DNA of 50,984 nucleotides from Coleofasciculus chthonoplastes F2-STO-03. GTDB lineage: Bacteria; Cyanobacteriota; Cyanobacteriia; Cyanobacteriales; Coleofasciculaceae. Location: positions 1-50,984 of the forward strand of contig JAVJWO010000009.1 of the NCBI GenBank assembly GCA_040222015.1, given 5' to 3'. Position numbers and translations under genes: made by a program. Under the pieces are notes generated by a model. The model had not been told where the DNA came from and searched no databases. It saw nothing but the letters and a program-made list of their open reading frames with translations. This document shows, one piece after another, positions 18,895-49,047 of the stretch; within the stretch, counting starts at the first letter, position 1, and every line of letters begins with the position of its first letter.

Positions 18895-21084
18895 ATGACG
18901 AATTCGATTTGGATTAGTGGTGGTACTCGCACGGGCAAAACAACTCGGCTGGTGACTCTGTTTCGCCAATGGGTAGAAGCGGGATGGGGTCGATCGCGTC
19001 CGTTATCCTCTCCCATTGTCCACAAAAAGCGGCGCGATCGCTATCAGACGCCAGCCCTGTTAATAATGGCCGCCAATGCGGATAATCGTCGAGAGTTGAC
19101 GGATCGCCTCACCACGACGTTACAGGGGCGTTATCCAGTACGTTGTCAAACGCCCTTGGGATTCTTTCAGGATGAGGTGATTCTATTTTGGCCCCTGTTA
19201 ATCCAACGGTTAAATCTGAGAGCGCAGTTTCCCTTGCGCTTGCGCCCGGAAACCGAACAGGATTTAGCCATGCAGTTATGGCGTCCCCACCTGGAATCTG
19301 GATTAATTCCGATACCGGGAAATAATGAGTCAGTTCGGGTGCGGCGTCTGTTAGATTTGTTACAATTAGCCGCCCTGAGTGGGACTGCGATTGAAGAGAT
19401 TCCCAGGATGCTAGAACAGGGAGTGGTGGAACTCGAAGCCACCCCGGATCAATGGGAATTAATTGGTAAACTGCTGGGGGATTGGCGGGGGTGGTGTCTG
19501 CATAAGGGACTGTTAACCTACAGTTTGGTGGGTGAACTCTATTGGCGGGAAATGTTACCCGATGCGACGTATCAGCAGTATTTAACCCAGCGTTATCGGG
19601 CGATACTGGCAGATGATGTGGATGAGTATCCCGCGATCGCACGGGATTTGTTTGATTTACTCTTAGATCAGGGTATCGTGGGGGCGTTTACCTATAATCC
19701 CCAGGGTCAAGTGCGCTTAGGCTTAAATGCTGATCCGGATTATTTGTCAGGATTAGCCTCTCGGTGTCAAGTGGAATCCTTACCCTCACAACCGAATGAT
19801 TCCTTAGCTGATGCGTTATCCCCAATGGCGGTAGACCTGCTCAACGACCCCATGATATTGTCAGACTTGCCGGAGTTTTTGCGATCGCTACAAACCACAT
19901 CCCGCGCTCAGTTGTTGCGCCGCACCGCCGAGGTAATTGTAGACGCGGTGAAATCGGGACAAGTGGAACCGGGAGATATTGCCATCATTGCACCCGGATT
20001 AGACGCGATCGCCCGGTATACTCTAACCGATATTCTCAGCAAACAGGGGATTCCCATCCAACCTCTGAACGAACAGCGCCCCCTAATTAGTTCCCCTTTA
20101 ATTCGAGCATTACTCACCCTGCTAACCCTTGTCTATCCAGGGTTAGGGCGATTAGTGGATCGAGAGGCGATCGCCGAAATGCTTGTGGTTCTTAGTCGTA
20201 CACCCGAACCCGTGGCGACGCCTGATCCCGACTCCCCCATCCCCAGCCCCAATATTGACCCGGTGCGGGCGGGTTTACTCGCCGATTACTGCTACTCTCC
20301 TGATCCCGACTCCCCCCACTTATTACCCGTCGAAGCCTTTGCCCGTTGGGATCGCTTAGGACATCGGGCGACAACGGCTTACACCCAGATTCAGCAATGG
20401 TTAGAGGTGCAACGAGAACAGCAGCAACAGCGCCTAATTCCGTCCTGTGTGGTGATTCTTGATCGCGCCATCCAGAAATTCCTGTGGAATGGCTCTAATC
20501 TACCTTACGACCAAATTGCCGCTTTGCGGGAACTCATGGAAACCGCCCAACATTATTGGGAAGTAGATGGACGATTGCGGAAACTCCCCGCCAATACGAC
20601 TGACGAGGAAATAGCCAGAGGGGGAACACCACCACAGGCGACGATTTCCCAATTTATTCAGTTATTGCGTCGGGGAACCGTCACCGCCAATTCCTTTCCC
20701 CTTCGTCGTCTCCCCGCTACGGCTAATTCAGCCGTTACCCTAGCCACTATTTTCCAATATCGAGCTGCCCGTGGCTATCACCGTTGGCATTTTTGGTTAG
20801 ATGCGGGATCTCATCTTTGGAGTCAGGGAGGTGCAGCGACGTTATTTGCAGCGCCCTTATTTCTCAAGGATTGGTTTGGACAGCCTTGGACCGAAGCCGA
20901 TAAAATCCAAGCAGATGAGGAACGCCTACAGCGAATTTTACAGGATTTGTTAGGGCGAGTGGGTGAGCGAGTGTATTTTTGCCATAGTGATTTAGCCGTC
21001 AATGGGACAGAACAAACCGGTCCATTGTTAAACTTAGTTCATTCCTCAATAGAGTTAACGGCTGAGTCAGTTGTGAGTCATTGA
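18895..21084 (+). CDS. Conserved cyanobacterial UvrD/SF1-helicase-like protein
   Basis: GGTRTGKTT Walker A, ILADDVDEY Walker B-like, PGDIAIIAP. Confidence 0.8.
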   Translation: MTNSIWISGGTRTGKTTRLVTLFRQWVEAGWGRSRPLSSPIVHKKRRDRYQTPALLIMAANADNRRELTDRLTTTLQGRYPVRCQTPLGFFQDEVILFWPLLIQRLNLRAQFPLRLRPETEQDLAMQLWRPHLESGLIPIPGNNESVRVRRLLDLLQLAALSGTAIEEIPRMLEQGVVELEATPDQWELIGKLLGDWRGWCLHKGLLTYSLVGELYWREMLPDATYQQYLTQRYRAILADDVDEYPAIARDLFDLLLDQGIVGAFTYNPQGQVRLGLNADPDYLSGLASRCQVESLPSQPNDSLADALSPMAVDLLNDPMILSDLPEFLRSLQTTSRAQLLRRTAEVIVDAVKSGQVEPGDIAIIAPGLDAIARYTLTDILSKQGIPIQPLNEQRPLISSPLIRALLTLLTLVYPGLGRLVDREAIAEMLVVLSRTPEPVATPDPDSPIPSPNIDPVRAGLLADYCYSPDPDSPHLLPVEAFARWDRLGHRATTAYTQIQQWLEVQREQQQQRLIPSCVVILDRAIQKFLWNGSNLPYDQIAALRELMETAQHYWEVDGRLRKLPANTTDEEIARGGTPPQATISQFIQLLRRGTVTANSFPLRRLPATANSAVTLATIFQYRAARGYHRWHFWLDAGSHLWSQGGAATLFAAPLFLKDWFGQPWTEADKIQADEERLQRILQDLLGRVGERVYFCHSDLAVNGTEQTGPLLNLVHSSIELTAESVVSH

Positions 21085-21360
21085 CGAAGCCTTGTGTTGA
21101 TCCAGACTCTTTGTTATAACACAAGTGACACCGATTTAATCACATTCTGCTGTAGACTCATGCGAAAATGACACAGATTGACACAGAAAGATATTTCAAG
21201 CGATCGCACCCAAGACTCGCATTGTGGCGATATGGGGTAGCATTGAGCGGATCATGGGGAAAATTGGGTGATCAGGGAGTTTCAACTCGGGTGGATTGAG
21301 GAGTGCGATCGCATCGACGCGATAAAATGATAGAGGTGGATTGCTCAAGCGTGACGTTAA

Positions 21361-21561
21361 ATGAAACAAGTCGAACAGATTCAATCGGAAATTGAAGCGC
21401 TCTCCCAGGAGGATTTCCGGCGATTGAGAGAGTGGTTTGCTCAAAAAGATTGGGAAATCTGGGATAAGCAAATTGAGGCGGATAGTGCTAATGGTAAACT
21501 AGATTTTTTGCTGGAAGAAGCAAGGACAGCCAAGTCTCAAGGAAAACTAGGAAACTTGTAA
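21361..21561 (+). CDS. Putative antitoxin of a ParE/RelE-like pair
   Basis: VEQIQSEIEALS...WDKQIEADSANGKLD pattern; directly upstream of the toxin-like gene. Confidence 0.8.
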   Translation: MKQVEQIQSEIEALSQEDFRRLREWFAQKDWEIWDKQIEADSANGKLDFLLEEARTAKSQGKLGNL

Positions 21562-21818
21562 GTGCATCGAACAACCCGAAATTCTGGCAACGTTTTTACG
21601 CCTTACCAGAAACTGTTCAGCGTCAGGCAAGAAAAAGCTATGATTTACTTAAAGCTGATCCCAATCATCCATCTTTAAACTTCAAAAAGGTTGGAAAGTA
21701 TTGGTCAGCAAGGATTGGATTAAGTTATAGAGCCTTAGCCGTAGAAGATGGTTCTGACTTTATTTGGGTATGGATAGGAGATCATGATGAGTATGACAGA
21801 CTGATTCATCGTAATTAG
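21562..21818 (+). pseudogene. ParE/RelE-like toxin with a 1-nt frameshift near codon 6-7 (absent from the ORF track)
   Basis: GTG-HRTT in one frame; FWQRFYALPETVQ...HPSLNFKKVGKYWSARIG...WIGDHDEYDRLI in another frame from 21582. Confidence 0.8.
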
Positions 21819-22307
21819 ATATTTGGCTTGTAGCTTTAAGGTAGAAGCGCGATCGCGTGTTTTTCATGGTATACTTTTAATCGTGGGAAAATGTGCCTGC
21901 CTATAGATCCCCATCAACCCTAAGCCGTAGGGTGGGTTAGGCGGTATTCAATTAAGAGAACAAATCATTTAATTACCTATCTGCCGTAACCCACCAAGTT
22001 ATCGTTTCTAACCAGTGAACAAACGATTCGGGCAATTTCTATCAGATTAAAGGATGTACCCTAACAATAGTGCAGCGAGGAACCCCTACATTACCTACAT
22101 GATCAAATGCACCTGACGGCTACAGCAAGCTCATGCGATCGCGTGTTTTTTTATGGTATACTTTTCATCGTGGGAAAATGTGCTTGCCTATAGACTCGAT
22201 ACATAAGGTGGCAGACGGAGATACAAAAAGAGCGATAAGCTTCGCTTGTGCTCTTATGCAATCGCACGTCCTGGCTGGGCATCTATAATCGATTATTCGT
22301 ATAATTC

Positions 22308-22643
22308 CTAAGCCACAGCGTATCCAGAGTGTTGTCGGACTTTAGACGAATGAAAAGCGAGAACAATTTTGTCTTTAGGAACTCCAGCTGCAACCAGTTC
22401 GCAAGTAATACCATCTTCAATGCCGTCTCTTTGAATCCAAATTTTGTCGTTAATGATTTCGACGTGAACGACACAACCATGAATTCTACGCTTGCCATCC
22501 CATCCAGCATTCATCAGGACGAAGTTATTGCGATCGCGATCGATAATTAATTTACTTTCAATTTGCCCGTGACTGTAAGGAATTCGATGGTGCGCCTCAA
22601 GAATGCGTTGAATAATATCGCGGTATTCTTCTACTCGATCCAT
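22308..22643 (-). CDS. xisI: XisI family protein
   Basis: GWDGKRRIHG, KIWIQRDGIEDGI, GVPKDKIVLAFH. Confidence 0.93.
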   Translation of the reverse strand: MDRVEEYRDIIQRILEAHHRIPYSHGQIESKLIIDRDRNNFVLMNAGWDGKRRIHGCVVHVEIINDKIWIQRDGIEDGITCELVAAGVPKDKIVLAFHSSKVRQHSGYAVA

Positions 22644-23044
22644 TTTACGATCTCCACTTTTTCAGGGTCAAAAATAATTAGGTTTAGCTGCTGGGTTTCT
22701 ACGACCATTTTGGCGATATCTTCTTGAAAAAAATCGAGATACACTTCATCAGAAATGGCTAGATAAAGAATTCTTTGGGGTTCAGATCGTTTTAAAGCCT
22801 CGTGATAAAGGATATATTGTCCCAGGGCTTGTTCCAAATCATTGACAGGTGATGGGCTGGAAAAACCTTTGATTTCAACGGCAATTTTACGCCCTTTTTT
22901 TTCAGCCGCTAGCAGTTTTTCGGCTCCTAAATCAATGTAGACTGAACGAGAACCAATCGTCACTCTGAATAGCTCATCGGTAATCGTCCATTCGTCTTTC
23001 TCCAGCGCAGTTCTTACTGTGTCGTGGTAAACGTCCTTTGCCAT
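22631..23044 (-). CDS. xisH: XisH family protein (PD-(D/E)XK-like)
   Basis: AKDVYHDTVRTALEKDEW, IDLGAEK, IAVEIK, ALGQY; overlaps xisI. Confidence 0.93.
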   Translation of the reverse strand: MAKDVYHDTVRTALEKDEWTITDELFRVTIGSRSVYIDLGAEKLLAAEKKGRKIAVEIKGFSSPSPVNDLEQALGQYILYHEALKRSEPQRILYLAISDEVYLDFFQEDIAKMVVETQQLNLIIFDPEKVEIVKWIE

Positions 23045-23295
23045 TATACTACAGCCTGATTGACCGAAAAATGTACAAACGGTCTCCGATTCTTAATCTT
23101 ACCCTAGGATTAGGGATAGGAAGAGCGACAACGGGCAAAATTGTTAGAGGAGAGACTGCGATCGCTGGGTGTTGATCCAGATTTTTTGTGATAACACAGA
23201 CGACACCGATTGAATCACACTCTGCTGGAGACTCACGATTAAATGACACAGATTGACACAGAAGGACGTTAAGAGCGATCGCACCCAAGACACAC

Positions 23296-23515
23296 TGATG
23301 AGACAACGGTGATTATTGAGATGCAAGTCCTAAATTTATAGGGCTTTGAACAAGGAATTAAGATGGCACGAGAACAAAGAATTCAGCTTGGGCGAGAACA
23401 GGGGATTCAGGAATCTAAAGTAGAAATGGCTAGGAAAATGTTAGGGGTTGTCGATGAAGATACGATTAGTCAGATCACTGGCTCGAGTTTAGAAGAGGTG
23501 CGACGGTTGAGGTAA
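23296..23515 (+). pseudogene. Internally deleted copy of the Rpn gene; retains an intact 50-aa C-terminal ORF (23363-23515)
   Basis: DETTVIIEMQVLNL segment joined to the GREQGIQESK...EEVRRLR tail; AAGGA upstream of ATG 23363. Confidence 0.8.
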
Positions 23516-24013
23516 AAATTGTTATTAAGTGAGTGCGATCGCGTGTTTTTCATGGTATACTTTTAATCGTGGGAAAATGTGCCTGCCTATAGACCTGATC
23601 AACCGTAAACCGTAGGGTGGGTTAGGCGGTATTCAATTAAGAGAACAAATCATTTAATTACCTATCTGCCGTAACCCACCAAGTTATCGTTTCTAACCAG
23701 TGAACAAAAGATTCGGGCAATTTCTATCAGATTAAAGGATGTACCCTAACAATAGTGCAGCGAGGAACCCCTACATTCCCGACATTCCCTACATTCTCAA
23801 ATGCACCTGACGGCTGCAGCAAGCCCATGCGATCGCGCTTGTGTTGATCCAGACTCTTTGTTGTAACACAGATGACACCGATTGAATCACATTCTGCTGT
23901 AGATTCACGCTTAAATGACGCAGATTGACACAGAAAGACGTTAAGAGCGATCTCACCCAAGACACAATGATCGCCTGTTTTTTAGGTAAACTTTTAATTG
24001 GGGGAGGATAACT

Positions 24014-24889
24014 ATGATTTTCATTAATCCGAAAACGGATTTTGCCTTTAAGAAAATATTTGGCTCTGAGCAAAACCCAGAAATCCTAATTAGTTTCCTG
24101 AATTCCCTCCTCTACGGCGGACATCCCCACATCACCGATCTAGAAATTATTAACCCTTATCTGGCTCCGAAGATTCAGGGAATTAAAGATACGTTCCTGG
24201 ATGTAAAAGCTAAACTCACCGATGAGACAACGGTGATTATTGAGATGCAAGTCCTGAATTTATCGGGGTTTGAGAAGCGGATATTGTATAACGCAGCTAT
24301 TGCCTATTCCATTCAGTTGGAACCGGGAGACGATTATACCCTATTGAATCCAGTGATCGCCTTGACGCTGACGGATTTTGAAATGTTTGAGGATTTGCCT
24401 CAGGTGATTTCTAATTTTGTCCTCAAAGAAAAGAAGGTGTTGACGGATTACCCGATTAATGATTTGGAGTTAGTGTTTGTCGAATTACCGAAATTTACCA
24501 AAGAGCTAGACGAATTAGAAACTCTAGCGGATAAATGGATATATTTTATCAAATGTGCCAGAGTATTAGAAACGATACCGGAAGCAATGGCACAAGTCCC
24601 GGAAATTCGCAAGGCGTTTGAAGTAGCGAATCAAGCGAATCTGACTCGTAAAGAGTTAGAAGCTCTCTTACAGAGGGAAATGTATATTCATGACCAACGG
24701 AATGCGATAAAATTAGCATTGAGACAGGGAATTCAAGTCGGGCGAGAACAGGGTATTCAAGTCGGGCGAGAACAGGGTATTCAGGAATCTAAAGTAGAAA
24801 TGGCTAGGAAAATGTTAGGAATTGTCGATGAAGATACGATTAGTCAGATCACTGGCTTGAATTTAGAAGAGGTACGACGGTTGAGGTAG
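24014..24889 (+). CDS. Rpn family PD-(D/E)XK nuclease (PDDEXK_2)
   Basis: NPKTDFAFKKIFG, LDVKA...IIEMQ, FVELPKF, GREQGIQ repeats; GGAGG RBS. Confidence 0.93.
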   Translation: MIFINPKTDFAFKKIFGSEQNPEILISFLNSLLYGGHPHITDLEIINPYLAPKIQGIKDTFLDVKAKLTDETTVIIEMQVLNLSGFEKRILYNAAIAYSIQLEPGDDYTLLNPVIALTLTDFEMFEDLPQVISNFVLKEKKVLTDYPINDLELVFVELPKFTKELDELETLADKWIYFIKCARVLETIPEAMAQVPEIRKAFEVANQANLTRKELEALLQREMYIHDQRNAIKLALRQGIQVGREQGIQVGREQGIQESKVEMARKMLGIVDEDTISQITGLNLEEVRRLR

Positions 24890-25005
24890 AAATTGTTATT
24901 AGTGAATGCGATCGCACTCGTGTTGATCCAGATTCTTTGTGATAACACAAGTGACACTGATTTAATCACATTCTGCTGTGGACTCATACTTAAATAAAAC
25001 AGATT

Positions 25006-25096
25006 CAGGACTTACGCAGCCACACCAGATATACGGGTTTTGGTGCGTTGCGCTTCGCTAACACACCCTACATATAGATCCTTTGCATAAGTCCTA
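25006..25096. mobile_element. 91-bp MITE inserted in repeat A, with 5-bp target duplication
   Basis: TIR CAGGACTTACGCA / TGCATAAGTCCTA; AGATT at 25001-25005 and 25097-25101; other A copies show the empty site. Confidence 0.85.
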
Positions 25097-26027
25097 AGAT
25101 TAACACAGAAAGATGTTTCCAGCGATCGCTCTTCGAGTATTACAGAAGATCGCGTGTTTATTCATGGTAGACTTTTAATCGTGGGAAAATGTGCTTGCCT
25201 ATAAACCTCATCAACCGTCAACCGTAGGGTGGGTTAAGCGGTATTCAATTGAGAGAACAAATCATTTAATTACCTAGGAGCTGTAACCCACCAAGTTATT
25301 GTTTCTAACCTACATTCCCTACATTCAAGGAATGCACCTGACGGATGCAGCCAGCTAATGCGATCGCGCTTGTGTTGATCCAGATTATTTGTGATTACAC
25401 AAGTGACACCGATTGAATCACACTCTGATGTAGACTCACGATTAAGTAACACAGATTGACACAAAAAGAGGTTTTACGCGATCGCACCCAAGACACAATG
25501 ATCGCGTGTTGGTTTATGGTATACTTTTAATCGTGGGAAAATGTGCTTGCCTATAGACCCCATCAACCGTAAACCGTAGGGTGGGTTAAGCGGTATTCAA
25601 TTGAGAGAACAAATCATTTAATTACCTATCCGCTGTAACCCACCAAGTTATCGTTTCTAACGAGGGCAATTTCTATCACATTAAATGATTTTCCCTCACA
25701 ATAGTGCAGCGACTCGCCCCTACATTACCTACATTCTCAAATGCACCTGACAGATGCAGCAAGCCCATGCGATCGCACTCGTGTTGATCCAGATTCTTTG
25801 TTATAACACAAGTGACACCGATTTAATCACATTCTGCTGGAGACTCACGATTAAATAACACAGATTGACACAGATAACCGTTTCATATCTGTCTCAATCG
25901 AATCATCTATTAACGCTGTCCTCACACCTGTATCTGCTATCTGTGAAATCAGTGGGGCTAACCTCTAACATCCCCACCCCTACCGTTTCAATAAATCCGT
26001 GAAATCAGTGTTATGGAATCAAACCGT

Positions 26028-40591: not shown

Positions 40592-41358
40592 ACCTACCTA
40601 CAGGTAAATGAATCTGCCAGCCAATCAAGTCCTGGCTAATCGCTCAAGTCAGCTAAAGCGAGCGAGAACGACCGAATTTAACCAGCTTGAGCATTGAACA
40701 GTGAACCTGAGTTCACAGCTTCGCCCTATCCTTAACCTACCCAGATCTCGACCCAGAGCGATCACCTAATCTAAATAACACCTCAACCAATCGTATCGGG
40801 CGCAAAGGTTTAAGCCGAGGGCGACCCGATCGAATTGAATGGATTGGAGTTGTTCATTAATGCAGGCGGGTCGCCCCAACCAGGATCGCCAGTTCCCTTT
40901 CGGTCAATTCCATCATGCGATCGCAGGTTCTATTCGGGTCAATTCAATCGTGCGATCGGGTTCCATTCCCGTCAATTTTATCGGGCGCACGGGGCGTGCG
41001 CCCCTACGTGTCGGTGAAAAACAGTGCGATCGCCTGTTCCCTTCCAGTCAATTTAATCGTGCGATCGCAGCCTGATTCCCAGCAAGCGCCAATCTTGTTC
41101 CCTCCCCTTCGAGGGGAGGGTTAGGGAGGGGTCGCGTCAAAGTATTGCTTTATTGATTAAGTTTTGGGCGACCCGATAGTTTGTCGGGGCGGGTTTTACC
41201 GATAACCTGTAAGCCAAAACGGGTAACTTATGTAAACCCGCCCTGTTTCTAGCGTTGTTCATTCATGCAGGCATCTCGCCCCGACAAGGTGCGATCGCGA
41301 AATTTCTCCAACTCCGGTAAGATAGACAGCTACACTCGTAGACTATCCCCATGCCCCA

Positions 41359-42447
41359 ATGACTCGATTTCCCCATGACCAATTTGCCAAGGACTATCTT
41401 GAGCAACTCTTATCCCCCATCGGAAACGTTCAAACCAGTCGCAACATTGCTGGAGAAGTGCGCGAGGTTGACGTCTTATTTATCCCCACCTCTATCTCAA
41501 ATGACTACCTCCTCTCACTGGGACTTTTAGGGCGCTTCGCCACAACCTCCGCCGTCTTTGAACCCTTTCGCAACGCCGTTACCCCCAGTCAAATTCGCAG
41601 TTGTCTTTCTAAACTGTTTGACCTATATGCTGAATTAGAACGACGCGCCAGACGGGACTCTACTTCCCTGAACCCTAGTGAACTCCCCCGACTATGGATA
41701 CTTACCCCCACCGCCTCAACCCCCTTACTCGATAGCTTTGGCGCCTTGGGTGACGAACAAAACCGGTTCAATGGACTCTATTTTCTTCACGAGGCGTTCC
41801 GAACAGCCATCGTTGTCATCCACCAACTCCCTCGTACCCCCCAAACCCTCTGGTTGAGACTTCTCGGAAAAGGTAGAGTCCAACAACAAGCCATCGAGGA
41901 GATCACCGCATTACCTGAAGACAGCCAACGGCGGCAGTCTACGCTAGAGTTATTGTATAACTTGCAAGCCAACTTACAAGCTAACCAAGACCAAAAATTA
42001 GACACAGAGGAGAGGGAGTTAATTATGGCGTTAGCACCCCTATATCGGCAACAACTGGATGCCGCGCTGCAACGAGGCATGGAACAAGGATTGCAACAAG
42101 GCATACAACAAGGACAACGACTGATTATCGAAAACCTCCTCCAGACTCGTCTGGGACAGTTGACCCCCACCCTGACTGCTTTAATCACTCCCTTATCGGC
42201 ATTACCCCCTCAGCAATTAACTCCGTTTCTCCTGCAATTATCTCAACTTGAAAACAGTGAATCAGCCATTCAACAAGCACAGTATTTTATTGTCGAAAAT
42301 TTGCTGAAAATTCGATTTGGAGAATTGGATGAACAACTCACCGCACGGGTCACTTCTTTATTAGAATTACCCCCCCAACAGTTAAGCCAATACCTCTTGC
42401 AATTATCTCAGGTATCCCGTGAGCAACTCTTAGCTCGATTTCCCTAA
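41359..42447 (+). CDS. Rpn-like putative PD-(D/E)XK protein with GxQQ repeats and a duplicated C-terminal helical module
   Basis: HDQFAK, EVREVDVLF, FEPFRN, TLWLRLLGKG, GMEQGLQQGIQQG; internal AGGGAG-N6-ATG at 42025. Confidence 0.8.
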   Translation: MTRFPHDQFAKDYLEQLLSPIGNVQTSRNIAGEVREVDVLFIPTSISNDYLLSLGLLGRFATTSAVFEPFRNAVTPSQIRSCLSKLFDLYAELERRARRDSTSLNPSELPRLWILTPTASTPLLDSFGALGDEQNRFNGLYFLHEAFRTAIVVIHQLPRTPQTLWLRLLGKGRVQQQAIEEITALPEDSQRRQSTLELLYNLQANLQANQDQKLDTEERELIMALAPLYRQQLDAALQRGMEQGLQQGIQQGQRLIIENLLQTRLGQLTPTLTALITPLSALPPQQLTPFLLQLSQLENSESAIQQAQYFIVENLLKIRFGELDEQLTARVTSLLELPPQQLSQYLLQLSQVSREQLLARFP

Positions 42448-43505
42448 GCCAGTCCTTAGATCGGCGTCAATGACGAACCGTGCGATCGCTCCCTTGTTCC
42501 TATTCCCGTCAATTTTATCGGGCGCACGGGGCGTGCGCCCCTACAAGGATCGCTTGTTTCCTTGCGGTCAATGGAATCGTGCGATCGCTCCCTTGTTCCT
42601 ATTCCCATCAATTTGATTGGGCGCACGTCTGTGCGCCCCTACGTGCGGGCAACAAACGGTGCGATCACCTGTTCTCATCCGGTCAATTGAATCATGTGAT
42701 CGCTCCCTTATGCCCAGCAAGCGCCAATCTTTCTTGTTCCCTCCCCTTCGAGGGTCCGGTTAGGGAGGGGTAGCGTCAAAGTATTGCTTTGTTGATTAAG
42801 TAAAGAGCGACCCGATCAAATTGAATGAATTGGAGTTATTAATTAATGCAGGCATCTCGCCCCGACAAGGATCACCTGTTTCCTTTGGGTCAATTGAATC
42901 ATGCGATCACCTGTTTCCTTCCAGTCAATTGAATCATGCGATCGTGCCAATCTTTCTTGTTCCCTCCCCTCGAAGGGGAGGGTTAGGGAGAGGTCAGATC
43001 AAGGTATTGCTTTGTTGATTTAGTATTGGGCGACCCGATCAAATTAAATGGATTGGAGTTGTTCATTAATGCAGGCGGGTCGCCCCTACCAGAATCGCCT
43101 GTTCCCTTTCGGTCAATTCCATCATGCGATCGCCTGTTCTGTTTAGGTCAATGGAATCGTGCGATCGCCGGTTGTTCCCATTTCCATCAATTGTATTGGG
43201 CGCAAAGGTTTGAGCCGAGGGCGACCCGATCCAATTGAATGGATTGGAGTTGTTCATTGATGCAGGCGGGTCGCCCCTACCAGAATCGCCTGTTTCCTTG
43301 GGGTCAATTCAATGGTGCGATCGCTTCCTTATTCCTACTTCCGTCAATTTGATCGGGCGCAGGTCGGTCATTGGTGTCAATTTAAGCTTCGTTGTGCCCA
43401 TATCATTGCAGAACACTCACTATTTTCTCGGTGACATTTACGGGTAGCCTTAACCAATCCTAAGATTTGCTAAAATATGAACTAACCATGACTTAGGGAT
43501 GGACA

Positions 43506-43901
43506 ATGGCTCCTGCTACTGATATTCACCAAAAAGCGATCACGCTGATTGGACAGCTACCTCAGGACAAATTGATAGCAGTTGTGCAGCTATTGGAATT
43601 TTTAGCGCAGCCGCCTCAGTCGAGTACAGTTAGTCCCCAGGAAACCCAATTGCTTGAGGTGATAGAGAGCCATATCTCTGAAGAGGAACAAATCCATCTA
43701 AACACATTACGCGATCGCTGTGAATGGGATGAACTGAGCGAAGCGGAATATCAGGAACTAATTGGTTACGAAGATTTGTTAGAGGAAAAGCGAGTAAAAC
43801 GATTAGAAGCCCTGATCCAACTAGCGCAGATTAGGAATATTGACCTAATCCGCTTAAACCAACAAATTCAGTTGAGATCCCAGCCTTCCCATGCCGTCTG
43901 A
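43506..43901 (+). CDS. Helical protein upstream of HNH, putative antitoxin
   Basis: LSEAEYQEL...RVKRLEALIQLAQIR; overlaps the HNH start. Confidence 0.7.
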   Translation: MAPATDIHQKAITLIGQLPQDKLIAVVQLLEFLAQPPQSSTVSPQETQLLEVIESHISEEEQIHLNTLRDRCEWDELSEAEYQELIGYEDLLEEKRVKRLEALIQLAQIRNIDLIRLNQQIQLRSQPSHAV

Positions 43902-44325
43902 CTATGAACGAATCCCCACAGCACTGAGACAGGAAATCGCTCAACAGGCAAAGCATCGATGCGAATACTGCCGTTGCCCAGATGAATTCTCTCCTGACAG
44001 CTTTACCGTTGATCATATCAAGCCTCGACAACTCGGCGGAGCAACCACTACTGAAAATCTAGCCTGGGCGTGTTTCGGCTGTAATGGTCGTAAATACACC
44101 CGGACTGTTTATCCTGACCCAAAGACGGGACAAGAGATTGCCCTATTCAATCCTCGTCAGCAGAATTGGACAGAGCATTTTGATTGGACTGAAGATTTAA
44201 CTCAACTACTCGGTCGAACCCCCTGCGGTCGTGCCACCATCGCAGCACTTGCACTCAACCGTCCGGGAGTCGTAAATCTTCGACGCCTACTTATCTTAGC
44301 CGGACTGCATCCACCGAATCAGTGA
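43891..44325 (+). CDS. HNH endonuclease
   Basis: RCEYC, VDHIKP, NLAWACFGCN, LFNPR. Confidence 0.92.
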   Translation: MPSDYERIPTALRQEIAQQAKHRCEYCRCPDEFSPDSFTVDHIKPRQLGGATTTENLAWACFGCNGRKYTRTVYPDPKTGQEIALFNPRQQNWTEHFDWTEDLTQLLGRTPCGRATIAALALNRPGVVNLRRLLILAGLHPPNQ

Positions 44326-44758
44326 ACAGAAAGAATCCAAAAGCTTACTATTTGAATGGATTGTAATTATTCATTGATGAGGTGCATCTCGCCCCTACCA
44401 GGATCGCCTGTTCCCTTTCGGTCAATTCCATCATGCGATCGCAGGTTCCATTTCCGTCAATTGTATTGGGCGCAAAGGTTTGAGCCGAGGGCGACCCGAT
44501 CGAATTGAATGGATTGGAGTTGTTCATTAATGCAGGCGGGTCGCCCCTACCAGGATCGCCTGTTCCCTTTCGGTCAATTCCATCATGCGATCGCCTGTTC
44601 TGTTTAGGTCAATTCAATCGTGCGATCGCAGGTTCCATTCCCGTCAATTTTATCGGGCGCACGGGGCGTGCGCCCCTACGTGTCGGTGAAAAACAGTGCG
44701 ATCGCCTGTTCCCTTCTGGTCAATTCCATCATGCGATCGCGCCAAGCTTATCTGCCAA

Positions 44759-45166
44759 TCATACTACCCAATTTTCCCAAGTCAAGCCAGGAATTCGGGA
44801 AAATTCTTTCACGTTATTGGTAACTAAAGTGATATTATGAGCAAGAGCTTGGCAAGCAATAAGTAAATCCATTGCACCAATCACCATGCCCATTTTTTCT
44901 AATTCTGCTCGCATTTTACCATAAGTTTGTGTTGTTTGGACATCAAAAGGTAAAATTTCCAGCATCATTATAAACTGACTCAACGCCGCCCTGTTTTGTT
45001 CTTGACGCTGACTTTTGTAAGCTCCATACTCCAGTTCAGCCACTGTAATAGATGATACGCCAATATCAGATGGACTGAGGCTTTGAAACTTGGCGAGTAC
45101 GTTGGCGGGTTTTTGTCTGATAATGTAGATGCAAATATTAGTATCCAGCAAAAATCTTATTGCCAT
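44759..45166 (-). CDS. vapC: VapC PIN-domain toxin
   Basis: LLDTNICI, ITVAEL.YG, DLLIA, LVTNN. Confidence 0.94.
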   Translation of the reverse strand: MAIRFLLDTNICIYIIRQKPANVLAKFQSLSPSDIGVSSITVAELEYGAYKSQRQEQNRAALSQFIMMLEILPFDVQTTQTYGKMRAELEKMGMVIGAMDLLIACQALAHNITLVTNNVKEFSRIPGLTWENWVV

Positions 45167-45387
45167 ATTTCTCTAGTTTCCAGGCTAGGCTGTTCCCGGT
45201 TCTCCATAAAGTCATCCGAAAATAGATGTAAGCTTTCTCTTAAAGTTTGCCAAGGATTAGCTTTAGGAATCAAAATCAGTACATTACCAATTTTTTTAAT
45301 GTAAACTTCGTTATCCTGGAAGTGAAATTCTTTGGGTAATATAACCGTCTGATTATCATCATTAACTAATAATTTTGCTGTCTTCAT
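45157..45387 (-). CDS. vapB: VapB (AbrB/MazE-fold) antitoxin
   Basis: TAKL...QTVILPKEF, FSDDFM; overlaps vapC. Confidence 0.9.
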   Translation of the reverse strand: MKTAKLLVNDDNQTVILPKEFHFQDNEVYIKKIGNVLILIPKANPWQTLRESLHLFSDDFMENREQPSLETREIWQ

Positions 45388-45798
45388 CTATGTTTCGTGG
45401 CTGGGTATCTAGGGAGGAAAGCTGCGCCTCCTAATAATTACAAAGATAACATAAGTATTGAACCGATCTCGCCTCTTCCCTTCCAGTCAATTCCATCATG
45501 CGATCGCAGCCTGATTCCCAGCAAGCGCCAATCTTGTTCCCTCCCCTTGAAGGGGAGGGTTAGGGAGGGGTCAAATCACGGTATTGCTTTGTTGATTAAG
45601 TTTTGGGCGACCCGATAGTTTGTCGGGGCGGGTTTTACCGATAACCTGTAAGCCAAAACGGGTAACTTATGTAAACCCGCCCTGTTTCTAGCGTTGTTCA
45701 TTAATGCAGGCATCTCGCCCCGACAAGGTGAGATCGCTTTCTTTTCTCCAACTCCGGTAAGATAGACAGCTACACTCGTAGACTATCCCCATTCCCTA

Positions 45799-46700
45799 AT
45801 GACTCGATTTCCTCACGACCAATTTGCTTGCGTAATACCTCGACCAACTCTTATCCCCGATTGGAAAAGTTACAACCAGTCACAACATTGCTGGGGAAGT
45901 GCGCGAGGTTGACGTCTTATTCATCCCCACCTCTGTCTCAAATGACTACCTCCTCTCACTGGGACTTTTAGGGCGTTTCGCCACAACGTCCGCCGTCTTT
46001 GAACCCTTTCGCAATCCTGTCACCTGCGAGCAAATTTGTGATTGTATTGCCAAACTCTTTGACCTACATCGGGAATTGAGACGACGCGCCAGACGGGAAT
46101 CCACCTCCCTGAACCCAAGTGAACTCCCCCGACTATGGATACTTACCCCCACCGCTTCAACACCCTTACTCGATAGCTTTGGCGCCTTGGGTGACGAACA
46201 AAACTGGTTAAATGGACTCTATTTTCTCCACGAGGCGTTCCGAACAGCCATCGTCGTCATCCACCAACTCCCTCGTACCCCAGAAACCCTCTGGTTGAGA
46301 CTTCTCGGAAAAGGCACGATCCAACAACAAGCCATCGAGGAAATCACCGCATTACCCGAAGACAGCCAACTACGAGAGTTTACGAAGCGAGTTATTGTAT
46401 GACTTGCAAGCCAACTTACAAGCCAACCAAGACCAAAAATTAGACCCAGAGGAGAGGGAGTTAATTATGGCATTAGCACCCCTATATCGGCAACAACTGG
46501 ATGCCGCGCTGCAACGAGGCATGGAACAAGGATTGCAACAAGGCATACAACAAGGCATACAACAAGGACAACGACTGATTATCGAAAAGGTCACTTCTTT
46601 ATTAGCATTACCTCCCCAACAGTTAAGCCAATACCTCTTGCAATTATCTCAGCTATCCCGTGAGCAACTCCTCGCTCGATTTCCTATAGCCAGTCCTTAA
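45799..46700 (+). pseudogene. Second copy of the Rpn-like gene, with two frameshifts and a C-terminal deletion; internal ORF 46467-46700 intact
   Basis: Aligns to 41359-42447; frameshifts near 45830 and 46385; about 300 bp upstream is also duplicated. Confidence 0.88.
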
Positions 46701-46881
46701 AGTGTCGTCAACAACGAACCGTGCGATCGCCTGTTCCATACCCATCAACAAAGATGGTGCGATCGCAGCCTGATTCCCAGCAAGCGCCAATCTTTCTTGT
46801 TCTCTCCCCTTCGAGGGGAGGGTTAGGGAGGTCTGATTCTTGAGAAACTGTATAACTTAATAATCATTTACAGAAATAACC

Positions 46882-47097
46882 ATGCCAGACGTACAGCTTC
46901 TTTCTCCCAAACAACATACTCTCTCTATCCAACTCGACTTGAGCCGTTCTCAAGATAAAGAAAAAGCCTTACAAATATTAGGACTCTATATCAAACGCTT
47001 TGAACTCCTGCTGAGGAAAAAATATGCCAACATCGGACAGGATGCTACAGCTTGCGCCCGTGCCATTGTCCCACTCAAGGTTACCCGATCGAATTGA
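46882..47097 (+). pseudogene. Probable 5' fragment of an unknown gene, running into a repeat
   Basis: ATG ORF whose last codons come from the ACCCGATCGAATTGA repeat. Confidence 0.45.
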
Positions 47098-47112
47098 ATG
47101 GATTGGAGTTGT

Positions 47113-47214
47113 TATAGCACTGAGCGCTTGTATGTTTACACATTAGAAATGGAGGCTTTATCAGGAGGCTTTTAGATCACTTGTACTGTAACTACGCTAG
47201 AGCGCACTGCTATA
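47113..47214. mobile_element. MITE of about 102 bp with TATAGCA...TGCTATA ends, interrupting an array-2 repeat
   Basis: Inverted ends; the host repeat stops at GATTGGAGTTGT. Confidence 0.65.
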
Positions 47215-47496
47215 ATTACAGCGTTTTCAGACTCGATGTGATACACCCTGTCCAAGAGTAGAAAAGCACTATCTCATCTTCCTGTACTACAAGGTATTGG
47301 TATTGTTGATTTAGTATTGGGCGACCCGACCCAATTGAATGGATTGGAGTTGTTCATTGATGCAGGCGGGTCGCCCCTACAATACCAGGGGTTTCATGAC
47401 ATAGCTTGGTGCGATCGCTTTCTTTTCTCCAACTCCGGTAAGATAGATTGCTACACTCGTAGACTACTGTGGAATGGGTGGGAAACCGCATAATCC

Positions 47497-49047
47497 TCAG
47501 CCTCGAATTACAACAACTCGGCGATCGCAGGCTGTCTTTGCCGACTCTGTGGTGGTGCGTTCAGCAATCGGTGGAAGTCCCTGACGCTGGTCAAAAATCA
47601 CCAGCCACCCCGTTTCCAGCCCTAACCCCGCCAGATACCGATCCAACTGCTCGAGTCCAGCTTTTATCGGGTCAGGGCGTCCCTGGCGCCATACTTTCAA
47701 CTCCATCGCCAGTGTGACATCCCCATAGCGCAGACATAAGTCCATCCGATCTGAGCCAATAGCATATTCCCGCTCTAGAGTACCGCCTCCGTTCACCACC
47801 CGATGCAAAAATGCCATCAAGACCAAATGAGGTGCAATTTCATGGTAGGGAGCGCTTTTGAGTAAAGGTTCCCCATGCTGTCGCCAAAAGCTGATAAAGG
47901 CTTGCAGCAGTTGCTCTTGATCAAGTTTCCCCTCAGGCGTTAACCAACTGGGGGAAATTTGGGGTAAGGAGGCTTGGGGGGTTTGGCTTAACACCAGAGG
48001 TAACACCTCTTGGTAAATTGGATTCGCGATCGCTAAACCGCCCTGTGAACTCATGCGACACAAGCCTAAATCAATCAGGAATTGCACATCATCTTGAGGA
48101 ATATCCTCTAACTCTTGCCCAATCAACATCGGTTCAATCACCGCCCGCACTCGGTCTTCTCGCAGAATACTAGCTAAACTATCCAGGTGAGTATCTTGGC
48201 GTTGAATCAGAATTTCTTTGGCTGTCTCAATGTGGTTTACAGTAATCGGTTGAGTCGGTTCAGTAACCAACTCTTCCACAATTTCTTTGGCTAAGGCATT
48301 CACCAACCAGGGTTGACCCTGAGTTAATGCAAACGCTCGCTCTACTGCCTCCCTCTCAAACACCTGCCCGGTTTCAGTGGTATGCTGCTCATACAATTGG
48401 GCGACTTCGGCACAGGTAAAGTTTCTCAGGGTTAGGGATTTAATCTTGATATTGAACGGACTAGAGGTATTCAGACGACGACTCCCCCCAGATGCCAGCT
48501 TATAATCTCGCACATCCCGCACCCCAATCAGCGCCATCGCCTGGGGAAATCCGTTTGGTCGCTTCGGATAACCATTTCTGAGCTGGCGTAACACAGAAAT
48601 TAAGGTTTCATCTTGCAGAGAATCAATTTCATCAATGAACACAACCAATGGACGCGAGGACTGTTGCGCCCAAGCACTCAGCGCCGCCCCAATCTGTCGC
48701 CCTGGCTCAGAGGCGGGAAACTCTGGAGGATAGAGTTCGGGGGGAAGCCAAAAGGTGGCGTCATCGTTCCAAGCATCGAGCATCGCCTTTTCCGCCGCCC
48801 CAGGATCATGGGGAAAGGCTGCGCCCACTTCTGCGGATACCATCACGGCGGTGTATTGCCCACTAGCAGTAAGGTGCTGGGCTAGGGCAAGCATGGCAGT
48901 AGTTTTGCCCGTTTGCCGAGGCGCATGGATGACAAAATAGCCCTGCTGTACAATCAGTCGCTCTAGCTGGGGTAGCCGAGCCAAGGGAGGGAGCATGTAG
49001 TGAATGTCCACTTTGCACGGTCCTGCCGTGTTAAACCATTTGGGCAT
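47497..49047 (-). CDS. P-loop (AAA-like) ATPase with C-terminal PD-(D/E)XK nuclease-like domain
   Basis: HAPRQTGKTT, VFIDEID, SPFNI, TQGQPWLV; MDLCL...MELK...GLEQL. Confidence 0.88.
   Translation of the reverse strand: MPKWFNTAGPCKVDIHYMLPPLARLPQLERLIVQQGYFVIHAPRQTGKTTAMLALAQHLTASGQYTAVMVSAEVGAAFPHDPGAAEKAMLDAWNDDATFWLPPELYPPEFPASEPGRQIGAALSAWAQQSSRPLVVFIDEIDSLQDETLISVLRQLRNGYPKRPNGFPQAMALIGVRDVRDYKLASGGSRRLNTSSPFNIKIKSLTLRNFTCAEVAQLYEQHTTETGQVFEREAVERAFALTQGQPWLVNALAKEIVEELVTEPTQPITVNHIETAKEILIQRQDTHLDSLASILREDRVRAVIEPMLIGQELEDIPQDDVQFLIDLGLCRMSSQGGLAIANPIYQEVLPLVLSQTPQASLPQISPSWLTPEGKLDQEQLLQAFISFWRQHGEPLLKSAPYHEIAPHLVLMAFLHRVVNGGGTLEREYAIGSDRMDLCLRYGDVTLAMELKVWRQGRPDPIKAGLEQLDRYLAGLGLETGWLVIFDQRQGLPPIAERTTTESAKTACDRRVVVIRG

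Follow-up and report, generated by a model that had tools for sequence, protein, structure and literature searches.

How might a cyanobacterium vary the toxin-antitoxin and nuclease genes of a single locus without an integrase? This question is raised by a modular array in Coleofasciculus chthonoplastes F2-STO-03, found in a stretch of 50,984 nt (assembly GCA_040222015.1, contig JAVJWO010000009.1, positions 1 to 50,984 of the forward strand; hereafter the window). The array spans 21091-25874, flanked by a conserved helicase-like gene on the left and a TPR-glycosyltransferase gene on the right, and is built as a mosaic from two non-coding modules, A (~130 nt, six copies) and B (~300 nt, five copies). 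Genes lie between the modules: a ParE-like toxin-antitoxin pair, an xisH/xisI pair, a C-terminal fragment of an Rpn-family nuclease gene, and a complete Rpn gene. Toxin-antitoxin and nuclease units make up this modular array, which has taken in, lost and re-ordered such units. What our data show is a hypervariable array with highly iterated palindrome 1 (HIP1; the 8-bp palindrome GCGATCGC) as its preferred joint. The explanation we favour, with moderate confidence, is that duplicated Rpn and Uma2 nuclease genes were reshuffled by short-homology recombination at HIP1, without a dedicated integrase.

The genome is a 7.7-Mb draft (7.72 Mb, 219 contigs), and the window is its contig C9. We determined the repeat anatomy by searches for direct and inverted repeats together with self-BLAST, and genes were called with Pfam. 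A preliminary description, made from the sequence alone, had proposed a modular scaffold repeated over ~4.8 kb, with these same genes in some of its slots and with empty units at its end. Self-BLAST recovered the scaffold, Pfam and alignments confirmed the genes, and 25148-25874 proved to be gene-less. One correction was needed, as the ParE-like toxin gene turned out to be frameshifted.

HIP1 is the commonest joint of the arrays

HIP1 is abundant in the window, with 62 copies in 51 kb (1.2/kb) where shuffled sequences gave 0.32. The density rises to 14 copies in 4.78 kb (2.9/kb) in the array, compared with 6058 copies (0.78/kb) in the genome. Thirteen of the 14 array copies are non-coding, while the remaining one lies inside xisI. 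The preliminary description had listed nine HIP1 at which module order changes; all nine are present, and each of them stands at a module change.

To count junctions, we used a set of nine arrays (43.6 kb, 110 HIP1), drawn from six of the eight other species of the genus and including a second array of the same genome on contig C91. A breakpoint was regarded as strong when backed by at least six alignment ends, and as lying at HIP1 when within 2 nt of the octamer. This was the case for 78 of the 231 strong breakpoints, against 3.0% expected from coverage. After inherited copies had been collapsed into junction signatures, 39 of 118 distinct junctions were on HIP1, where 3% was expected (nominal binomial p ~1e-29). 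A cruder count, with 88 of 818 breakpoints within 3 nt against 3.5% expected, was noisy and is superseded by these stricter ones. HIP1 is by far the commonest joint, about ten-fold over chance; the preliminary description had placed the changes of module order at this octamer.

The sequences on the two sides of HIP1 are also reassorted. We sorted the 24-nt left and right flanks into classes and found that 28 left and 34 right classes occur in 56 combinations; the joint between HIP1 and B5p, the 58-nt head of module B, has nine left partners. Among the 226 8-mers present in at least 15 copies, HIP1 ranked first for this context reassortment (reticulation). The other high-scoring 8-mers either overlap HIP1 or represent the tail repeat of Rpn.

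Two controls lacked such a bias. In the rest of the genome, 122 of 17,401 repeat ends fell on HIP1 (0.7%, with 0.9% expected), compared with 30 of 126 when the same method was applied to the genome's two arrays. Of 224 alignment ends at the loci of seven Rpn arrays in other genera, only 5 lay within 2 nt of HIP1. We also searched metagenome contigs of the Joint Genome Institute with a B5p pattern in which GATCGC was the only part of HIP1 demanded, and found the full octamer in all 20 copies recovered. The left partners of these copies were A (nine), the Rpn 3' end (seven), the end of the cassette PIN1 (three) and B3p, the tail of module B (one). The public sequencing-run contigs over the region are short and break at repeats. 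Seven of the 15 joints listed (of 43) end no more than 3 nt from a window HIP1. They are of metagenomic origin, probably represent related or paralogous arrays, and are not taken as independent support.

Empty and filled sites at HIP1

On C91, linker X1 runs through HIP1 directly into B5p (X1-HIP1-B5p), whereas in the window the same site is filled and reads X1-HIP1-(536-nt ParE cassette)-HIP1-B5p. The difference may reflect either gain or loss of the cassette. In the sister-species genome G008, the ParE cassette starts at the same first base, but what precedes it is a decayed HIP1 located within A, not X1. Because both the empty and the filled site are known, primers and reporters can be designed directly, and the locus offers a compact test bed for HIP1 joining.

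HIP1 flanks the ParE-like and HNH cassettes on both sides and is found at both joints of the cassette PIN2. The DUF433/DUF5615 cassette is bounded by half-sites, and the PIN1 and Phd-like cassettes have HIP1 on one side only. Many of the HIP1 joints lie within ATGCGATCGCG.

The modules are leftovers of gene ends

Alignment of 28 A copies from the nine arrays, together with two translations, showed that the first ~35 nt of A correspond to the last codons of a Uma2 gene, ...LLEERLRSLGVDPDSL*. The 'RSL' codons of Uma2 are themselves a HIP1, which in the window is the copy at 23158-23165. B5p, in turn, is homologous to the leader between the third A copy and the Rpn start codon. Because A contains the 3' end of Uma2 and B5p is a homologue of the Rpn leader, the scaffold is made up of what remains of the ends of Rpn and Uma2 genes, to which a dispersed repetitive extragenic palindrome (REP) and a miniature inverted-repeat transposable element (MITE) are added. 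Both the origin of Rpn arrays by tandem duplication (PMC10400941) and clusters of paralogous Uma2 genes (PMC2701414) have already been described.

Array contents differ among sister species

We probed other genomes with a 516-nt A-B-A sequence. All eight further Coleofasciculus genomes gave matches, compared with only 3 of 32 genomes from other genera, where the match was weak or confined to the REP. Arrays built of the same modules are present in six sister species, and at least three of them (G002, G004 and G007; these labels and G008 denote sister-species Coleofasciculus genomes, while C62, C91 and C192 are other contigs of the genome studied here) carry the array at the same locus. The left flanking gene is shared with G004 and G007 and the right flanking gene with G002, and the right-hand tail is found in G008. 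In all five arrays that reach it, the right edge falls on the same base inside A, after GATTGACACAGA.

The contents of these arrays differ. Thus, the comparison of cassettes across sister species that the preliminary description had called for revealed variation rather than identity. G002 carries six Rpn copies plus a remnant in at least 9.6 kb, G008 has two Rpn copies, and the window one full copy and one remnant, so that the locus contains direct Rpn copies with shared flanks, as in tandem rpn arrays. PIN pairs of two kinds occur in the other arrays, together with a DUF433/DUF5615 pair, a Phd-like pair (below the cut-off), ParDE, an HNH pair and Uma2. Pfam matches were obtained for 27 of 54 array open reading frames (ORFs), namely ten PDDEXK_2, five PIN, four Uma2 and two ParE_like, together with one each of ParE, ParD, DUF433, DUF5615, HNH and a sub-threshold Phd. 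Order varies as well, the ParE-like cassette opening the array in the window and closing it in G007. The Rpn remnant, the joint between A and an internal Rpn sequence, and the MITE within A are common to the window and G002, where the MITE-bearing A is duplicated. Because the remnant and the MITE-bearing A are shared in this way, some of the joints must be old.

We also examined the loci of boundary-gene homologues from 80 other genomes and found the modules to be absent in more distant genera. Among six Coleofasciculus loci with at least 92% protein identity, modules lie downstream in four, while L025 and L026 have none. A single Uma2 gene is present at the locus in L025 and in the truncated L027. 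Two more distant Coleofasciculus species have no modules here, and in one of them a single Uma2 gene occupies the locus, which is perhaps the ancestral state.

Probable reshuffling of duplicated genes at HIP1 and its alternatives

In the explanation we favour, Rpn and Uma2 nuclease genes in tandem would have formed the original array. Their leaders and 3' ends persist as A and B; the REP hairpin and the MITE would have been added later. Units would have been duplicated, deleted, re-ordered and replaced, with unrelated pieces joined preferentially at HIP1. The joining is likely to be independent of RecA and to use short homology at HIP1, the commonest shared word of the array, often extended to ATGCGATCGCG. 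Template switching at breaks may underlie it, as may homology-facilitated illegitimate recombination acting on incoming DNA, and the two may operate together. Rpn nucleases encoded in the array could make the breaks, and incoming DNA could be captured by a homologous anchor in a linker at one end and by HIP1 microhomology at the other. The reported stimulation of transformation and recombination by HIP1 may help.

Published observations are compatible with several of these steps. Rpn arrays are described as products of tandem duplication, with Rpn not being a transposase according to the accessible text of that study (PMC10400941). Escherichia coli RpnA promotes RecA-independent recombination, for which a template-switch mechanism has been proposed (PMC5350276), and HIP1 is reported to act in a Chi-like and transformation-enhancing manner (bioRxiv 10.1101/2024.09.10.611283). 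Earlier hints link HIP1 to both site-specific and illegitimate recombination (PMC4390886).

Several points weigh against reshuffling at HIP1. Two thirds of the distinct junctions (79 of 118) are off HIP1. Among them are the right edge of the array, the deletion inside Rpn, the left boundary of PIN1 and the two boundaries of the xisHI cassette, as well as the joint between A and the Rpn-internal sequence, which used another microhomology, CAC(T/C)GATGAGAC. As the genomes are related and share inherited junctions, the counts and p-values given here exaggerate how many events were independent. Species were compared only with one another, which does not bear on current activity. Finally, the Rpn proteins here belong to PF12784 and those of E. 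coli to PF04754, so that the E. coli activity may or may not carry over.

The best surviving alternative, although we regard it as unlikely, is an integrase-free exchange in which HIP1 serves as the attachment site and cassettes are excised as circles and re-inserted at the HIP1 of a linker. The HIP1-recognising activity would then belong to a host factor or to a cassette-borne Rpn, Uma2 or XisH nuclease, an assignment that we likewise find improbable. The boundaries of the ParE-like, HNH and PIN2 cassettes, the exact empty site on C91 and the unchanged first base of the ParE cassette behind a different, decayed HIP1 in G008 all fit such an exchange, but no candidate recombinase was found; the fold of the neighbouring 'recombinase family protein' is that of a helicase, and its gene adjoins the array only in a subclade. 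The reassortment of left and right contexts at HIP1, with a bias specific to these arrays, is also in agreement, as is the insertion of small elements into HIP1 (a 26-nt insert here and three more on C62; compare SDR5, PMC4390886). Two thirds of the junctions nevertheless lie elsewhere, cassettes occur in both orientations, the linkers are relics of genes, and an 8-bp palindrome gives no polarity.

This alternative is the reading of the preliminary description, which proposed a HIP1-jointed platform for the capture and shuffling of defence genes. None of the three outcomes that it had named as refuting (identical cassette content across strains, breakpoints unrelated to HIP1, misassembly in long reads) was seen. 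The variable array, the HIP1 bias and the empty/filled pair are in line with this proposal, whereas the relic nature of the scaffold and the share of junctions off HIP1 are not. We therefore see the capture platform as a live minority view with a rather low probability, and any selective role of the array as a shuffler of defence genes is putative. If cassette exchange were true, it would provide cyanobacteria with integron-like shuffling of defence genes and HIP1 with a concrete molecular role.

Distinctly unlikely, in our view, is that ordinary tandem duplication, decay and independent insertion account for the array, with HIP1 marking the joints without making them. HIP1 followed by a T-run might in that case be a small terminator, or HIP1 might have been created in place by the mutational ratchet behind its maintenance. 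Terminator-like hairpins, formed by HIP1 and then GTGTTTTT, are indeed seen at B5p starts; however, the terminator scan did not exceed shuffles (5 against 3.5 expected). Rpn arrays elsewhere are plain duplications (the other-genera control; PMC10400941), and some of the junction HIP1 are degenerate (25148 and 25500). A function at unit ends nevertheless leaves both the octamer-exact reassortment (rank 1 of 226) and the empty/filled pair unexplained, and repeat ends elsewhere in the genome have no HIP1 bias.

An assembly artefact with collapsed or mis-joined repeats is highly improbable: although the draft genome comprises 219 contigs, C91 starts inside a REP and the public contigs of the best-matching run break at repeats, copies that diverge by 8-16% can be told apart, the same architecture recurs in six sister-species assemblies and in metagenome contigs, and the derived joints (A to Rpn-internal sequence, MITE in A) are shared by the window and G002.

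Cassette genes of the window array

The cassettes represent toxin-antitoxin pairs and nucleases of the type found in defence islands. In the ParE-like cassette, an intact antitoxin-like ORF (21361-21561, 66 aa) ends 1 nt before the GTG start of the toxin (21562/21564-21818), which matches the ParE_like family PF24732 with 35.3 bits (cut-off 24.4). This arrangement of a toxin domain and a small upstream partner in one operon is that of a type II toxin-antitoxin system. The toxin is frameshifted after codon 4 by a 1-nt deletion past the GTG, with CCC where three of three relatives have CCCC. Because of this deletion in the C-run (21562-21580), the toxin lacks an in-frame start in its own genome. 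The best-matching public contig set carries the same frameshift.

The xisH and xisI genes form a regular XisH/XisI pair, whose orientation is opposite to that of the window's other cassettes. A further xisH/xisI pair, outside the main arrays, is located on C192 at ~77837-79114 and is flanked by fragments of A and B5p.

The Rpn remnant contains an ORF (23363-23515, 50 aa) that aligns to the Rpn C terminus; its parent gene had lost the 5' part and an internal piece. The ORF is conserved in two species, the one studied here and one sister species. This stand-alone tail could serve as a free antitoxin. The tail repeat GREQGIQV varies in number among the six full Rpn copies, from about two to five units.

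We also scanned 19 proteins with PADLOC models. One Uma2 protein of C91 matched PDC-S17, a candidate family (E 3.9e-69). The two HNH proteins gave weak matches to PtuB-like models, and nothing meaningful was obtained for the ParE-like pair, XisH, XisI and Rpn of the window array.

The left boundary gene and tests for an integron

The gene that bounds the array on the left carries a name suggestive of recombination, 'recombinase family protein', and a protein so named, perhaps but not necessarily of the same family, also appears among HIP1-correlated families (PMC13756078). The product of the boundary gene matched nothing in Pfam or NCBIfam and is not a site-specific recombinase. In the N-terminal part, where the model is confident, it adopts a superfamily 1 helicase fold like that of UvrD, PcrA, AddB and AdnB, with an intact Walker A motif, and the top Foldseek matches were PcrA, UvrD, AdnB, Rep, AddB and RecB. 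The mean predicted local distance difference test score of the AlphaFold model is 53.6; 10-residue means range from 68 to 90 over residues 1-300, except for lower values at 31-50 and 271-280, and the model cannot be relied on in its C-terminal half. The gene shows 90-95% nucleotide identity in sister species and has 2756 homologues at E<=1e-10. Because this is a core cyanobacterial gene with a helicase fold, and the array adjoins it only in a subclade, we rejected it as the recombinase of the array.

We next considered an integron or a cluster of attC sites lacking integron-integrases (CALIN). The preliminary description had noted neither an integrase nor a cas gene nor attC, and our searches agree. 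With the IntI model TIGR02249, the best score in the whole genome was 21.9 bits against a cut-off of 265, and Pfam identified no integrase, transposase or Cas protein among the 40 window ORFs scanned. A folding test, run without an attC covariance model, revealed no attC-like fold in A or B5p. The cassettes are not co-oriented as in integrons, xisHI and PIN2 being opposite to the others. Together, the lack of IntI, the lack of an attC-like fold in A and B5p and the mixed orientations led us to reject an integron or CALIN. A unit of B and A, compared with plasmid and phage collections by BLAST in a distant mode, gave no match; thus, nothing marks the modules as a known mobile element.

Anatomy of the array

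The coordinates of the array and of its left neighbour are given in Table 1. The repeat search recovered eight direct families and no inverted ones (inverted repeats of at least 30 nt) at the place of the array. Copies of the modules diverge by 8-16% in self-BLAST. Module B comprises the head B5p, a REP hairpin of ~96 nt and the 138-nt tail B3p, and one of its copies has an internal deletion.

Table 1. Features of the window array and its left neighbour, in order of position.
Feature	Position	Strand	Remarks
Left boundary gene, conserved in cyanobacteria	18895..21084	+	NCBI name 'recombinase family protein'
Module A, copy 1	21091..21216	+	Starts 7 nt past the boundary-gene stop; no HIP1 in front
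Linker X1	21217..21312	+	Ends in HIP1 21305-21312, the left joint of the ParE-like cassette
ParE-like toxin-antitoxin cassette	21313..21848	+	536 nt; HIP1 on both sides
Module B, copy 1	21846..22143	+	HIP1, B5p with TGGTATACT extended -10-like box, REP hairpin, B3p, HIP1
B5p-only copy, then linker X2	22134..22300	+	B part 22134-22195, first 60 nt only
xisI (22308-22643) and xisH (22631-23044)	22308..23044	-	Pfam XisI 144 bits, XisH 179 bits; overlap 13 nt
Uma2 nuclease C-terminus relic	23114..23191	+	EERQRAKLLEERLRSLGVDPDFL*; precedes A2
Module A, copy 2	23157..23299	+	Self-BLAST, A alignment
Rpn remnant	23290..23527	+	Rpn nt 201-260 joined to nt 703-875
Module B, copy 3	23532..23837	+	Self-BLAST
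Module A, copy 3, then Rpn 5' leader homologous to B5p	23828..24013	+	A copy itself 23828-23971
Full Rpn-family PD-(D/E)XK nuclease	24014..24889	+	PF12784/PDDEXK_2 175 bits vs 27.4; TIGR01784 172 bits vs 52.1
Module A, copy 4	24906..25129	+	Split by 91-nt MITE 25006-25096
Gene-less tandem B4 (25148-25368), A5 (25359-25502), B5 (25500-25776), A6 (25768-25874)	25148..25874	+	

The dispersed elements within the modules are also found across the genome. The MITE that splits the fourth A copy has terminal inverted repeats and gives 118 BLAST matches genome-wide, and the REP core, which often forms tandem clusters, is the source of most of the 89 genome-wide matches of B. When folding was compared with shuffled sequences, only the REP was better (z -2.3), while A on both strands and B5p gave z values of +0.27, +0.46 and +1.77. 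The promoter-like box of B5p was read by eye, and a consensus promoter scan was neutral on it. The scan yielded seven promoter-like sites (11.6 expected) and five terminator-like ones (3.5 expected), neither above chance. Rfam, run over the entire window at gathering thresholds, gave no match. Some of the junctions carry degenerate HIP1, for example those at 25148 and 25500.

A hairpin-like insert of 24-26 nt was found inside HIP1 itself (GCGAT...CGC; equally readable as lying between nucleotides 3 and 4). One copy is in the window (22232-22265), where 26 nt at ~22235-22260 split the HIP1 of linker X2, and three are on C62, near 127, 1874 and 2843. The insert is similar to SDR5, a type of element described as inserting into HIP1 (PMC4390886).

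Relation to known systems

None of the ingredients of the locus is new in itself: Rpn arrays, clusters of Uma2 genes, islands of toxin-antitoxin genes and anecdotal cases of recombination linked to HIP1. What is new to us is their combination in a fixed, species-variable array with an about ten-fold preference for joints at HIP1 and an empty/filled pair. A search of the full-text literature returned no description of a HIP1-jointed cassette array; most subscription journals were outside its coverage, so that absence is unproven.

Among the closest known systems are the rpn arrays with their Rpn(L) and Rpn(S) forms (Zhong et al. 2023, PMC10400941). As far as the accessible text of that study goes, they share with the present array the tandem Rpn genes, the lack of terminal inverted repeats and target duplications, and variable short C-terminal repeats, and the stand-alone C-terminal fragment resembles their small antitoxin form. 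The GREQGIQV variation described above parallels the variable four-residue repeats of the genes encoding an Rpn toxin and its internal antitoxin. In contrast to those arrays, the one described here is interleaved with unrelated cassettes, prefers HIP1 for its joints, and its Rpn belongs to PF12784 instead of the PF04754 of E. coli. Clusters of paralogous Uma2 (COG4636) cassettes, likely to be solo toxins, have been reported in cyanobacteria as well (Makarova et al. 2009, PMC2701414); the accessible text of that study mentions no link to HIP1 joints or to mixed cassettes.

Chromosomal integrons and CALINs combine a fixed locus with variable small cassettes, rich in toxin-antitoxin pairs, and conserved non-coding separators. 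The array resembles them in all of these respects and in having empty and filled sites. It differs in that IntI is lacking, the only hairpin is the genome-wide REP, orientations are mixed and the joint is an 8-bp palindrome.

An integrase-less island of E. coli (Azpiroz & Lavina 2017, PMC5426353) is a precedent: it is excised independently of RecA through recombination of short direct repeats and, in the accessible text, encodes no recombinase of its own. It is, however, a single island with its own repeats, whereas the present case is a multi-cassette array that uses a word iterated throughout the genome.

HIP1 has been considered as a place of joining or stimulation before (Akiyama 1998 and Robinson 1997, via Elhai 2015, PMC4390886; Kamoku & Nielsen 2024, bioRxiv). 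Those cases, as their accessible text presents them, concerned plasmid constructs and transformation assays, while here a natural chromosomal array contains dozens of HIP1 joints that are conserved and reshuffled across species. The function of HIP1 has been debated since the 1990s, with proposals that include chromosome structure, a by-product of methylation and repair, an uptake signal and a Chi-like role (PMC5861425, PMC4390886, PMC13756078, bioRxiv 2024.09.10.611283). The locus adds natural, cross-species evidence that unrelated DNA is joined at HIP1 far above chance, and it shows a route by which a cyanobacterium can vary toxin-antitoxin and nuclease genes without an integrase.

A second modular array in the window

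The window contains a second modular array, at 40700-47500, with different repeats. It comprises 12 copies of a ~35-nt unit that starts with HIP1, often two or three in tandem and found on this contig only, as well as six copies of a GC-rich hairpin repeat and duplicated blocks of 150-300 nt. Its genes encode a DUF4351-containing protein (41359-42447, with a broken duplicate at ~45836-46700), an HNH pair (43506-44325) and a PIN pair (44759-45387).

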